Notes under the pieces: generated by a model
The model's database searches: none
What the model saw: the letters and a program-made list of their open reading frames with translations, nothing else
Told to the model about the DNA's origin: nothing
IMG/VR virus record: IMGVR_UViG_2728369181_000006
Location: 1 to 44,578 of that record
Reading direction: 5' to 3' (one strand)
Origin: a virus
Taxonomy: Duplodnaviria; Heunggongvirae; Uroviricota; Caudoviricetes
DNA: 44,578 bases
Program-made: the position numbers and the translations under genes
Shown: one piece after another, positions 5,219 through 44,578 of the stretch
Numbering within the stretch: the stretch's first letter is position 1
Layout: each line of letters begins with the position of its first letter

Positions 5219-5290
5219 TCAATATTTCCTAATCCGATTTGTTGATACCGAAGCCCTGACTGTTCCCGCAGTTGGGGCTTCACTGTTTTG
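5219..5290 (+). ncRNA. sar: Candidate Sar-like antisense RNA covering the ant ribosome-binding region
   Basis: Plus-strand hairpin (gaagccc...gggcttc, about 5250-5282) followed by a T-rich tract, about 70 nt downstream of a weak promoter-like -10 tatact at 5206-5211. Geometry matches P22 sar, which is antisense to the ant RBS. Confidence 0.3.
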
Positions 5291-32544: not shown

Positions 32545-32982
32545 ATGATTAAAGAACGTATTTCTTATATCATTCCGATTGCGATGGATGAAGGCAACCC
32601 CGTAACTCCAGTTCTTATCTATGAAATGGATAAAGACTCCCATGAAGTGGATCTGTCATTTGGCGCTTTTTTTATCGGCCTTAAGGCTACAAAAAAATAT
32701 TCCATAGGCATTGAGGTTTTCAATGCTCAAGAAATACCGATACCAATTGACACAAAACTGTACTCCAACCATAAGTTTTTTACGGTAGCAGAAGCCAACG
32801 ATGGAGAAACCATCGTATCAACTTCTATGAGAATTAACTTCCCAAGGGTGAAAATTATCAAGCCTGGGATATTCGAAGTTAGAGCATCACTGGTTAATCC
32901 TGAGAAAGGCGAAGTAATTGATGTAAAAAGTTCGTTTTTTGACGTGAAGATAACAGGATCAGTTCGCGATGAGTTTAGATAA
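32545..32982 (+). CDS. Hypothetical 145-aa protein, first gene of a cI-linked cassette at the rexA position
   Basis: ATG 8 nt after cI stop; no recognisable family; predicted soluble. Confidence 0.5.
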   Translation: MIKERISYIIPIAMDEGNPVTPVLIYEMDKDSHEVDLSFGAFFIGLKATKKYSIGIEVFNAQEIPIPIDTKLYSNHKFFTVAEANDGETIVSTSMRINFPRVKIIKPGIFEVRASLVNPEKGEVIDVKSSFFDVKITGSVRDEFR

Positions 32983-33292
32983 CAAGGTTACTCAGCTTCG
33001 TCCAAATCAAAACATATCTCGCCCAATTGGACACTATCCAACTGATGATGCATACTCACGGCATGGTGGCGGCAATGGCGGAGGTGATGATGTGCTTCAA
33101 AGAGTGAAAGAACTCGAAAAAGATGTTCAGCAAATGAAAACCGACCTGGCTGTCATGCGCTCGAATTATGCAACCAAATCAGACGTAAGCGACGCGAAAA
33201 CTTCGATAATTCTATGGGTTGTAGGTGCGGTCGTATCCTCACAACTCATACCAGCAATCCCCAAAATACTTGAAGTGTTTTTCCATAAATAA
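32969..33292 (+). CDS. Hypothetical 107-aa protein with coiled-coil and C-terminal TM helix (XhlA-like architecture), second gene of the cI-linked cassette
   Basis: ATG overlapping the upstream gene by 14 nt; Gly-rich N-terminus, LQRVKELEKDVQQMKTDLAVMRSNYATK coiled coil, hydrophobic tail SIILWVVGAVVSSQLIPAIPKIL. Confidence 0.5.
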   Translation: MSLDNKVTQLRPNQNISRPIGHYPTDDAYSRHGGGNGGGDDVLQRVKELEKDVQQMKTDLAVMRSNYATKSDVSDAKTSIILWVVGAVVSSQLIPAIPKILEVFFHK

Positions 33293-40759: not shown

Positions 40760-41287
40760 ATGACCACTATTACCAGAAAAGAACAAAAGCAAGTTCTCAT
40801 AGATACAGCTAATCACGTAATCAACCGTGATAATACTTCACCATATAGCGAAAATCTTAGGGAACTGGCACGAATTGCGCTGGCATCGCTGGAAGCAGAG
40901 CCTATAAGCCAAACTTACAACTTGCCACAAACGCACTTTGAACAGGTTGCTGACCTTTACGAAATGCAATTTGAGGATGGACGCACTTGTACCTTTCACA
41001 CTGATGCGCAAAAGGCTGTGCAATGGCTTCAGGCGTGCGACGGAAACAGGGTTCAGGAATACGTTAAGCTGGAACGATTGCAGAACGCACTGTCTGGCAA
41101 CTCTCCGGTAACTCCGGATGGTTGGGTTATGGTGCCGAAGGAGTTAACCCCGGAAATGATGAGAGCCGTTCAGATTAGAAGTGAGCTTGGAGGGTATGCC
41201 ACTTCCAATCTATCTGGTGCATACAATATGTTTTCTGAGTTCTGGAATGTTGCTGTCTCAGCTGCGCCTAAGGTGGATGATTTATGA
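40760..41287 (+). CDS. Hypothetical protein, 175 aa
   Basis: ATG ORF; contains the common phage motif …VPKELTPEMMRAV…. Confidence 0.45.
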   Translation: MTTITRKEQKQVLIDTANHVINRDNTSPYSENLRELARIALASLEAEPISQTYNLPQTHFEQVADLYEMQFEDGRTCTFHTDAQKAVQWLQACDGNRVQEYVKLERLQNALSGNSPVTPDGWVMVPKELTPEMMRAVQIRSELGGYATSNLSGAYNMFSEFWNVAVSAAPKVDDL

Positions 41288-41586
41288 ATCTATATCGCTG
41301 CCCATTCTGTGGTTCCACTGTGCTTAACATCGGATACTCATTCAATATCAGAGGGAAAATGCGCTATGTGTCATGCAAATGTGGTGCCCAAGGACCAGAA
41401 AAACGAACTAAATCTGAAGCGATTTCTTCATGGAATACTCGAATGAAGGTATGGGTTTATGATCCAGAAACCATATTAAACGCTGAAGAGCGCAGGAGAA
41501 CGGAAGTCTATATTCATAACCTTAATGAAGATGGATTTACACCAGTGCTTGTAAAGGCTACTCCGCAGGAGGTTAACCATGGCTAA
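41284..41586 (+). CDS. Lar-family restriction-alleviation protein with C-terminal extension, 100 aa
   Basis: Lar signature: CPFCGS … CKCGAQGP … EAISSWNTR in the first ~55 aa. Confidence 0.6.
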   Translation: MNLYRCPFCGSTVLNIGYSFNIRGKMRYVSCKCGAQGPEKRTKSEAISSWNTRMKVWVYDPETILNAEERRRTEVYIHNLNEDGFTPVLVKATPQEVNHG

Positions 41587-41649
41587 CCTGCAACTTGACG
41601 TCAAAGGTGAATAACAATCCTCGCACTCGCGGGGATTTCTTTTATCTGA

Positions 41650-41672
41650 ACTCGCTACGGCGAGTTTTGTTT
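41650..41672 (+). terminator. Putative terminator downstream of the Lar-like gene
   Basis: actcgc-tacg-gcgagt followed by tttgttt. Confidence 0.35.
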
Positions 41673-41687
41673 CATGGAGATGATAAA

Positions 41688-41893: not shown

Positions 41894-42112
41894 ATGTACT
41901 TGACACTTCAGGAGTGGAACGCACGCCAGCGACGCCCAAGAAGCCTTGAAACAGTTCGTCGATGGGTACGCGAGTGCAGGATATTCCCACCACCGGTTAA
42001 GGACGGAAGAGAGTATTTGTTCCACGAATCAGCGGTAAAGGTTGACTTAAATCGACCAGTAACAGGTAGCCTTTTGAAGAGGATCAAAAATGGGAAGAAG
42101 GCGAAGTCATGA
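41894..42112 (+). CDS. xis: Excisionase Xis (lambda-type), 72 aa
   Basis: MYLTLQEWNARQRRPRSLETVRRWVRECRIFPPPVKDGREYLFHESAVKVDLNRP matches lambda Xis as recalled. Confidence 0.9.
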   Translation: MYLTLQEWNARQRRPRSLETVRRWVRECRIFPPPVKDGREYLFHESAVKVDLNRPVTGSLLKRIKNGKKAKS

Positions 42113-43160
42113 GCGCCGGGATTTACCCCCTAATCTTTATATAAGAAACAATGGATATTACTGCTACAGGGACCAAAGGACGGGTAAAGAGTTTGGATTA
42201 GGCCGAGACAGGAGGATAGCAATCACTGAAGCAATACAGGCCAACATTGAGTTATTTTCAGGACACAAACACAAGCCTCTGACAGCGAGAATCAACAGTG
42301 ATAATTCTGTTACGTTACATTCATGGCTTGATCGCTACGAAAAAATCCTCGCCAGCAGAGGAATCAAGCAGAAGACACTTATAAATTACATGAGCAAAAT
42401 TAAAGCAATAAGGAGGGGTCTGCCTGATGCTCCACTTGAAGACATCACCACAAAAGAAATTGCGGCAATGCTCAATGGATACATAGACGAGGGCAAGGCG
42501 GCGTCAGCCAAGTTAATCAGATCAACACTGAGCGATGCATTCCGAGAGGCAATAGCTGAAGGCCATATAACAATAAACCCGGTCGCTGCCACTCGCGCAG
42601 CAAAATCAGAGGTAAGGAGATCAAGACTTACGGCTGACGAATACCTGAAAATTTATCAAGCAGCAGAATCATCACCATGTTGGCTTAGACTTGCAATGGA
42701 ACTGGCTGTTGTTACCGGGCAGCGTGTTGGGGATTTATGCGAAATGAAGTGGTCTGATATCGTAGATGGCTATCTTTATGTCGAGCAAAGCAAAACCGGC
42801 GTAAAAATTGCCATCCCAACAACATTGCATGTTGATGCTCTTGGGATATCAATGAAGGAAACACTTGATAAATGCAAAGAGATTCTTGGCGGAGAAACCA
42901 TAATTGCATCTACTCGTCGTGAACCGCTTTCATCCGGCACAGTATCAAGGTATTTTATGCGCGCACGAAAAGCATCAGGTCTTTCCTTCGAAGGGGATCC
43001 GCCTACCTTTCACGAGTTGCGCAGTTTGTCTGCAAGACTCTATGAGAAGCAGATAAGCGATAAGTTTGCTCAACATCTTCTCGGGCATAAGTCGGACACC
43101 ATGGCATCACAGTATCGTGATGACAGAGGCAGGGAGTGGGACAAAATTGAAATCAAATAA
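42090..43160 (+). CDS. int: Integrase Int (lambda-type tyrosine recombinase), 356 aa
   Basis: MGRRRSHERRDLPPNLYIRNNGYYCYRD… matches lambda Int as recalled; catalytic R…HxxR…Y residues present; overlaps xis. Confidence 0.9.
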   Translation: MGRRRSHERRDLPPNLYIRNNGYYCYRDQRTGKEFGLGRDRRIAITEAIQANIELFSGHKHKPLTARINSDNSVTLHSWLDRYEKILASRGIKQKTLINYMSKIKAIRRGLPDAPLEDITTKEIAAMLNGYIDEGKAASAKLIRSTLSDAFREAIAEGHITINPVAATRAAKSEVRRSRLTADEYLKIYQAAESSPCWLRLAMELAVVTGQRVGDLCEMKWSDIVDGYLYVEQSKTGVKIAIPTTLHVDALGISMKETLDKCKEILGGETIIASTRREPLSSGTVSRYFMRARKASGLSFEGDPPTFHELRSLSARLYEKQISDKFAQHLLGHKSDTMASQYRDDRGREWDKIEIK

Positions 43161-43233: not shown

Positions 43234-43248
43234 TTAGTATAAAAAAGC
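43234..43248. repeat. attL: Lambda att core (prophage left junction, attL-type), preceded by lambda P'-arm sequence
   Basis: ttagtataaaaaagc identical to 1807-1821; 43161-43233 is the reverse complement of the lambda P' arm as recalled. Confidence 0.85.
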
Positions 43249-43294: not shown

Positions 43295-44578
43295 GTGAAC
43301 ACATTTTCAGTTTCCCGTCTGGCGCTGGCATTGGCTTTTGGCGTGACGCTGACCGCCTGTAGCTCAACACCGCCCGATCAACGTCCTTCTGATCAAACCG
43401 CGCCTGGTACCTCTTCGCGCCCGATTCTGTCGGCAAAAGAAGCGCAGAATTTCGATGCTCAACACTATTTTGCATCCCTGACACCAGGTGCGGCAGCGTG
43501 GAATCCTTCCCCGATTACCCTGCCTGCGCAACCTGACTTTGTTGTCGGCCCGGCGGGTACTCAAGGTGTAACGCATACCACGATTCAGGCGGCGGTAGAT
43601 GCGGCAATTATCAAGCGTACCAACAAGCGCCAGTATATTGCCGTGATGCCTGGTGAGTATCAGGGAACGGTGTATGTCCCTGCCGCTCCGGGTGGAATTA
43701 CTCTGTACGGTACAGGTGAAAAACCGATTGATGTGAAGATTGGGCTTTCCCTTGATGGTGGCATGAGCCCTGCCGACTGGCGTCACGACGTCAACCCGCG
43801 CGGCAAATATATGCCAGGTAAACCGGCGTGGTATATGTACGATAGCTGCCAGAGTAAACGCAGCGACAGTATCGGTGTTCTCTGCTCTGCGGTCTTCTGG
43901 TCACAAAACAATGGCCTGCAACTGCAAAACCTGACCATCGAAAACACGCTGGGCGATAGCGTAGATGCGGGTAACCATCCGGCGGTGGCACTGCGTACTG
44001 ATGGCGACAAAGTGCAGATCAATAACGTCAACATTCTCGGTCGTCAGAACACCTTCTTTGTCACCAACAGCGGTGTGCAGAACCGTCTGGAAACGAATCG
44101 CCAGCCGCGTACGCTGGTGACCAACAGCTATATTGAAGGGGATGTGGATATCGTTTCTGGTCGCGGCGCAGTGGTGTTCGATAACACCGAATTCCGCGTG
44201 GTGAACTCCCGTACCCAGCAAGAAGCGTATGTGTTTGCACCGGCTACGCTGTCCAACATTTACTACGGTTTCCTCGCCGTAAACAGCCGTTTCAATGCTT
44301 CCGGTGATGGCGTGGCGCAACTGGGCCGCTCGCTGGATGTTGATGCCAATACCAACGGTCAGGTAGTGATCCGTGATAGCGCCATCAACGAAGGTTTTAA
44401 CACAGCCAAACCGTGGGCTGATGCGGTGATCTCTAATCGTCCGTTTGCGGGTAACACCGGCAGCGTTGATGATAACGACGAAGTACAGCGCAATCTGAAT
44501 GACACTAACTACAACCGCATGTGGGAATACAATAACCGCGGCGTGGGTAGCAAAGTGGTTGCAGAGGCGAAGAAGTAG
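43295..44578 (+). CDS. ybhC: Host lipoprotein YbhC (pectinesterase-family acyl-CoA thioesterase), 427 aa
   Basis: GTG start; lipoprotein signal LTAC; pectinesterase-like beta-helix region; K-12 neighbour of the lambda attachment site. Confidence 0.8.
   Translation: MNTFSVSRLALALAFGVTLTACSSTPPDQRPSDQTAPGTSSRPILSAKEAQNFDAQHYFASLTPGAAAWNPSPITLPAQPDFVVGPAGTQGVTHTTIQAAVDAAIIKRTNKRQYIAVMPGEYQGTVYVPAAPGGITLYGTGEKPIDVKIGLSLDGGMSPADWRHDVNPRGKYMPGKPAWYMYDSCQSKRSDSIGVLCSAVFWSQNNGLQLQNLTIENTLGDSVDAGNHPAVALRTDGDKVQINNVNILGRQNTFFVTNSGVQNRLETNRQPRTLVTNSYIEGDVDIVSGRGAVVFDNTEFRVVNSRTQQEAYVFAPATLSNIYYGFLAVNSRFNASGDGVAQLGRSLDVDANTNGQVVIRDSAINEGFNTAKPWADAVISNRPFAGNTGSVDDNDEVQRNLNDTNYNRMWEYNNRGVGSKVVAEAKK

Follow-up and report, generated by a model that had tools for sequence, protein, structure and literature searches.

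Does a small reading frame close to the integrase gene of a λ-att prophage encode a restriction-alleviation protein of the Lar family, and what is to be made of the long C-terminal part that follows its Lar domain? The frame lies at 41284-41586 of the phage DNA analysed here, a stretch of 44,578 nucleotides that we refer to as the window. The original prediction, made from the sequence alone, proposed an anti-restriction function, and suggested that the tail behind the Lar signature may alter specificity.

The gene and its immediate surroundings

The features on which the following rests are listed by coordinate, strand and type.

40760..41287, plus strand: ORF175 (matches to PHROG families of unknown function only; no Pfam match)
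41270..41287, plus strand: translation-initiation region (read from the sequence)
41284..41586, plus strand: Lar-family coding sequence of Sf6 gp20 type, with an ATG start and 100 codons plus stop (open reading frame list and sequence)
41290..41445, plus strand: N-terminal Lar zinc-ribbon domain, residues 3-54 (limits of the HMM match)
41446..41583, plus strand: subfamily-specific, cysteine-free C-terminal tail, residues 55-100 (pLDDT, conservation, dN/dS)
41616..41677, plus strand: two tandem terminator-like hairpins with T-runs (terminator scan)
41894..42112: xis
42090..43160: int

The Lar-like gene has a strong Shine-Dalgarno sequence, AAGGTGGA, at 41270-41277, followed by the ATG at 41284. 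This start codon overlaps the stop codon of ORF175 in an ATGA at 41284-41287, and such an overlap suggests that translation of the Lar-like gene is coupled to that of ORF175. ORF175 itself has a mosaic look, in that different PHROG families of unknown function are matched by its N-terminal portion and by its C-terminal portion (motif VPKELTPEMM).

Directly 3’ of the Lar-like gene, the terminator scan located hairpins at 41616-41637 and 41648-41667. These twin hairpins fall within a block of 97% homology to λ that starts at 41611, and they are nearly identical in Sf6, E. coli LSC52 and λ, with different genes on one or both sides. In Sf6 and LSC52 they stand downstream of the homologous gene, and the λ copy is found between ea8.5 and orf55. 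Judged by this distribution, the hairpins look like a conserved mosaic boundary or joint, and they may serve as an early-left terminator.

Assignment to the Lar family

The signature motifs said to occupy the first ~55 residues, with a tail behind them, are indeed present in the 100-aa protein: CPFCGS spans residues 6-11, CKCGAQGP 31-38 and EAISSWNTR 45-53, and 46-47 further residues come after them. The Lar assignment was borne out by the profile TIGR03655 (NCBIfam), which scored 59.0 bits (curated cut-off 39.6 bits, E = 4e-16) over its whole 55-position model (1-55), and also by PF14354 (Pfam), at 36.5 bits (curated cut-off 28.6 bits, E = 6e-09). Both matches are confined to about residues 2-54, and that to PHROG 599, annotated as ‘Lar-like restriction alleviation protein’, spans residues 1-99. 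We regard membership of the Lar family as close to certain.

By these matches, residues 3-54 are identified as a Lar-family zinc ribbon with four cysteines, followed by the helix EAIxxWNxR. The putative zinc ligands C6, C9, C31 and C33 (CPFC ... CKC) are invariant in 19 homologues. The second cysteine pair is a CxC, versus a CxxC in Rac Lar, and a CxC second knuckle was also found in 26 of the 100 family members sampled among the matches listed. The helix motif EAISSWNTR closes the domain, and short members, when aligned, show almost no variation at A46, W50, N51 and R53. In the AlphaFold2 model, the domain is built from strands at residues 15-21, 24-30 and 36-38 and a helix at 43-53. With 100 aa and a folded tail, the protein lies outside the size of a single-domain Lar protein (~55-70 aa); however, size does not define the family, since 30 of the 100 sampled members among the matches listed are also long.

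Conservation, selection and predicted fold of the tail

AlphaFold2, supplied with an alignment of 19 sequences, returned a mean pLDDT of 81, with a peak over residues 51-90 where block means reach 88-95. Within the tail it predicts a strand at residues 57-59, a helix at 67-83 and a second strand at 88-90. The tail is kept, at equal protein length, in Enterobacter and metagenome homologues that are 53-70% identical, and Y59, T63, E69, T73, Y76, I77, G84 and F85 are invariant across the 19 sequences; an alignment of six tail sequences has 20 invariant columns. When the genes from the window, Sf6, E. ludwigii and E. kobei were compared codon by codon, using values where synonymous change was not saturated, the tail gave dN/dS values of 0.24-0.42 and the zinc ribbon lower ones of 0.07-0.16. 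These values point to purifying selection on both parts of the protein, which appears to be somewhat less strict on the tail than on the zinc ribbon. In our view, the tail very probably belongs to the protein as a genuine, folded part.

Two variants were seen among the database clusters. One of 75 aa with 147 member sequences (P0005) starts at M26 and has no first knuckle (CPFC), which may reflect a truncation of the allele or a wrongly called start. The other (P0006, 128 aa) has ~30 additional C-terminal residues containing CRFCG and is possibly a fusion to the start of a following zinc-ribbon gene.

Search for relatives of the tail

A profile of the tail only, with 46 positions and built from six sequences, was searched exhaustively against 1.84 billion cluster representatives. 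Within the Sf6 gp20 subfamily it matched three representatives, and no stand-alone family homologous to the tail was found by this search, although a profile this short and shallow may let very remote relatives escape. Furthermore, the tail matched nothing in Pfam, PDB or BFVD, nor did hhalign relate it to the Lar domain. The remaining matches of the profile were made up of multiple stretches in long proteins, of which the two inspected were an ankyrin-repeat protein and a tandem-repeat protein. The match to the former arises because NEDGFTPVLVKA resembles the DxxGxTPLxxAA turn. The tail was rejected as a set of ankyrin repeats, which are ~33 residues long and arranged in tandem, as it contains this single short motif and has no Pfam ankyrin match. 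It was likewise rejected as a degenerate second Lar domain, for it contains zero cysteines and shows no profile similarity.

The search also returned a chimera of 74 aa (P0040), in which the 33 N-terminal residues of λ N run on, without a change of frame, into the 24 residues that end the tail. The chimera indicates that in some genome the entire early-left operon between N and the Lar-like gene has been deleted. As the exhaustive search yielded the subfamily, this chimera and the multi-stretch matches, the tail as a stand-alone protein, or as a module fused to other domains, was rejected. As judged by sequence and by fold searches, the tail module is restricted to a narrow subfamily in prophages of Escherichia, Shigella and Enterobacter, with Sf6 gp20 as its prototype.

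C-terminal additions across the Lar family

A profile of the Lar domain retrieved 1512 proteins, of which we sampled the 100 matches listed outside the Sf6 gp20 subfamily; this sample is the top-scoring slice of the matches and may be biased. Among the matches listed, 67 of the 100 are short, their Lar domain being followed by fewer than 20 residues, and three are intermediate. A C-terminal part of at least 30 residues is carried by 21, of which 18 contain further CxxC motifs and typically end in ...NYCPNCGAKVV, an ending that from its sequence looks like a second zinc ribbon. The final nine are tandem Lar domains. A cysteine-free tail of the Sf6 gp20 type was seen in none of the 100 sampled members among the matches listed. 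Several individual proteins (P0026, P0027, P0041, P0048, P0056 and others) are tandem Lar duplications, or Lar domains with a second zinc-ribbon-like segment. Like the window protein, the other long Lar proteins have an N-terminal Lar domain followed by 36-55 residues, for a total of ~96-120 aa; unlike it, their C-terminal part is cysteine-rich or a second Lar domain, and gives no match to the tail profile.

C-terminal extensions are thus common in the Lar family, and diverse additions are carried by about a third of the sampled members among the matches listed. The sequences suggest a family more diverse in architecture than its name and its 55-position models imply. These counts divide the original prediction in two. 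To call the extension unusual was justified in comparison with the short Rac Lar (64 aa, with a disordered end), and the tail is specific to its subfamily; for extensions as such the word was too strong, given the 21 sampled members with at least 30 additional residues and the nine tandem proteins among the matches listed. What can be added is a modest point, namely that the tail is a conserved orphan module in a family that commonly diversifies its C-terminus.

Relatives already in the databases

The gene is already known, and stands in RefSeq under the very name that had been proposed for it. The copy in E. coli LSC52 is 100% identical in DNA and encodes WP_094192474.1, which PGAP annotates as ‘Lar family restriction alleviation protein’. 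At the protein level there is 97% identity to the product of gene 20 in Shigella phage Sf6 (NP_958196.1, annotated as ‘Lar-like restriction alleviation protein’), and the gene has been in that phage since its genome was sequenced. Four Stx1a-converting phages have a homologue at 94%, and a search of 5426 complete E. coli genomes showed the same DNA, at no less than 95% identity, in 154 of them. Sf6 gp20 and WP_094192474.1 share with the window protein their length, their two-part architecture and the downstream twin hairpins, and their genes likewise come after an Ea22-like gene, in the early-left region. Sf6 has an int and attP of HK620 type and different flanking genes, whereas the window prophage has λ int and xis, and yet the protein is essentially unchanged. 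Our literature search found no published work on a protein of the Sf6 gp20 type or on its function.

Prophage context and mosaicism

The λ att core GCTTTTTTATACTAA is present in two exact copies, at 1807-1821 and 43234-43248 (0.01 expected by chance), which delimit a complete prophage of ~41.4 kb. The host reading frame that follows int, at 43295-44578, is by eye presumably ybhC-like, which would fit the λ attB locus. Four gene products of the prophage, those of int, xis, orf55 and ea10, share 97-99% identity with their λ counterparts. A match to sar RNA (RF00262 in Rfam, the antisense RNA of P22 immI/ant) at 5219-5284 on the plus strand, with 63.7 bits against a gathering score of 43, marks the prophage as a P22-like/λ-like hybrid.

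The predicted location, distal in the early-left operon and just before xis and int, was found as described: the Lar-like gene lies upstream of orf55, xis and int, on the same plus strand as the early-left genes that precede it (cI-like repressor, N-like antiterminator, cIII, ea10 and Ea22-like). From the annotated LSC52 homologue we infer that kil and RecT also belong to this upstream operon. Two reading frames on the plus strand, 32545-32982 (145 aa) and 32969-33292 (107 aa), lie between the cI-like and N-like genes, at the position of λ rexA and rexB; they matched PHROG families of unknown function only and gave no PADLOC match, and are candidates for exclusion or defence genes expressed by the prophage.

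Nucleotide homology to λ stops at 40761, where the Ea22-like gene ends, and is found again from 41611 onwards. The 849 bp in between (40762-41610) consist of ORF175 and the Lar-like gene, and this break in homology indicates that the insert replaces the ea8.5 segment of λ. Among genomes, the upstream neighbour of the Lar-like gene may be an ASCH, DUF550, DUF551, Ea22-like, pyrophosphohydrolase or hypothetical gene, and the downstream neighbour orf55, Sf6 gene 19 or a DUF4752 gene. A conserved partner gene was consequently rejected, as both neighbours vary. A prophage of Enterobacter ludwigii has the homologue at the same operon position. In Enterobacter kobei, the homologue (4001-4297 of L006 and 283-579 of L007) is located between nin-type genes and the small terminase subunit, with replication and nin-type neighbours (λ P-like, RuvC-like and HNH), and not beside xis and int. 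The location in E. kobei means that the early-left operon position is not a fixed property of the Lar-like gene, and together with the varying neighbours it points to a self-contained mosaic cassette without a fixed partner.

Proposed function and competing explanations

The explanation that accounts best for these observations overall, to which we assign a probability of about 0.5, is that of a two-part Lar-family accessory protein of a λ-att prophage, with a proposed action on type I restriction-modification like that of Rac Lar. Once the phage has infected a cell or the prophage has been induced, transcription of the Lar-like gene would proceed from pL with N-type antitermination. If Rac Lar is a guide, the zinc ribbon would then act on a type I restriction-modification enzyme, such that unmodified phage DNA would be methylated rather than cleaved. 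The protein may in this manner stand in for λ ral, the absence of which from the prophage makes a role as a type I countermeasure plausible. The tail is probably not catalytic, and would most likely add a surface for stabilisation, oligomerisation or partner binding. Where King & Murray 1995 is cited in PMC10286901 and PMC11482910, Rac Lar is described as alleviating restriction and enhancing modification. The identity of the window protein to this single tested member, ~34% over 53 residues, is low, and it is the sole basis for an anti-restriction function; behind the ‘Lar family’ label itself stands one experiment, done on a protein of 64 aa. That restriction alleviation is the actual function may, on this analogy, be given slightly less than an even chance.

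We must however take into account that the ‘Lar’ name may be a label for the fold alone. The protein could instead be a factor that counters host defence or takes part in host takeover, aimed not at type I systems but, for instance, at a type IV system or another immunity system, with the tail providing recognition. The tail is conserved, under selection and structurally confident, yet unique to its subfamily, and the many different C-terminal additions in the Lar family suggest a modular scaffold; both would suit such a factor, as would the movement of the gene as a mosaic cassette between phage regions. Furthermore, the Lar homologue of phage Bas63 matters in a host-dependent way, and the authors of that study were unable to trace this to type I systems (PMC11482910). 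Against this, nothing indicates a specific alternative target, PADLOC, Pfam and fold searches having given nothing, and, with ral missing, the simplest role is that of a type I countermeasure. We therefore consider this alternative unlikely, if worth keeping in mind. A narrower form, in which the tail is a new specificity or effector module that retargets the Lar ribbon to a different host defence or enables a dimer, is doubtful. Were the tail to retarget the ribbon, proteins of the Sf6 gp20 type would constitute an anti-defence subfamily with a function of its own, aimed perhaps at a different type I family, at a type IV system or at some further defence. More generally, the Lar ribbon would then serve as a modular scaffold, with diversity arising from what is added at its C-terminus.

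A different activity is suggested by Rac Lar itself, which is identical to RalR and has been reported as a non-specific DNase (endonuclease) toxin held in check by the sRNA antitoxin RalA (PMC4041452), and whose close Rac-type relatives are named RalR toxin by NCBI. By the same token, the window protein might be a DNase toxin of the RalR kind and form a type I toxin-antitoxin pair with a small antisense RNA that restrains it. A RalA-type antitoxin was nevertheless not found: BLAST for a RalA homologue gave only chance 10-11-mers in the window (E > 1), complementarity in trans of at least 12 nt to the Lar-like mRNA was limited to one chance 12-mer, and Rfam had no match around the gene. The inverted repeats there are weak and short, the longest measuring 21 nt at 76% complementarity. 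Moreover, the gene is coupled within a long phage operon, has no promoter of its own, and its product is just 34% identical to RalR. A toxin is improbable. The least credible alternative is that the tail is an artefact, produced by read-through, by a frameshift fusion of two genes or by untranslated sequence that is open by chance. Databases do contain a 47-aa protein consisting of the tail alone (P0028), as well as forms truncated at the N-terminus (P0005, 75 aa). However, at least 19 sequences, with identities as low as 53%, contain both parts in full and without a break in frame, synonymous change in the tail is far above non-synonymous change, AlphaFold confidence peaks there, and not one stand-alone homologue of the tail was present among the 1.84 billion representatives. 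The homologues, dN/dS and AlphaFold confidence effectively refute a read-through or fusion product. We retain the two-part accessory protein, with its proposed action on type I systems, as the preferred explanation.

Comparison with known systems

Within λ, two genes invite comparison. λ Ral (66 aa) is, like the window gene, encoded in the pL operon, and the phenotype proposed for the window gene is that of λ Ral; however, ral adjoins N, in another part of the operon, and the proteins have no sequence similarity. BLASTP against all six-frame reading frames of at least 30 aa in the window (E <= 0.01) returned no homologue of λ Ral. λ Ea8.5, of a family that is a homeodomain/zinc-finger hybrid, occupies the same slot between ea22 and orf55-xis-int and is similar in size, and it has no homologue anywhere in the window; the Lar-like protein resembles it neither in sequence nor in fold. 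Homology of the Lar-like protein to either λ protein was rejected on these grounds.

The closest known system is that of the Rac prophage. Rac Lar (RalR; b1348, 64 aa, from MG1655) is the founder of TIGR03655/PF14354 and its sole member to have been studied experimentally, and the identity over 53 residues given above extends over features common to both proteins, as each has a four-cysteine zinc ribbon with CPFCG and a helix of the form E-A-h-x-x-W-N-x-R. A model of the Rac type, made with 43 short family members, has the same order of hairpin and then helix as the window protein, with residues 56-64 disordered (pLDDT <50). The difference therefore lies at the C-terminus, where Rac Lar ends 11 residues past WNKR in a segment predicted to be disordered, and the window protein has its folded tail of 46 residues. 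RalA has been reported as the sRNA antitoxin of Rac Lar, whereas the window is without a RalA-like sRNA. In gene order the two agree: in the Rac operon, recT-ralR-rcbA-xis-int, the Lar gene stands two genes upstream of xis-int, in the same place as the gene studied here.
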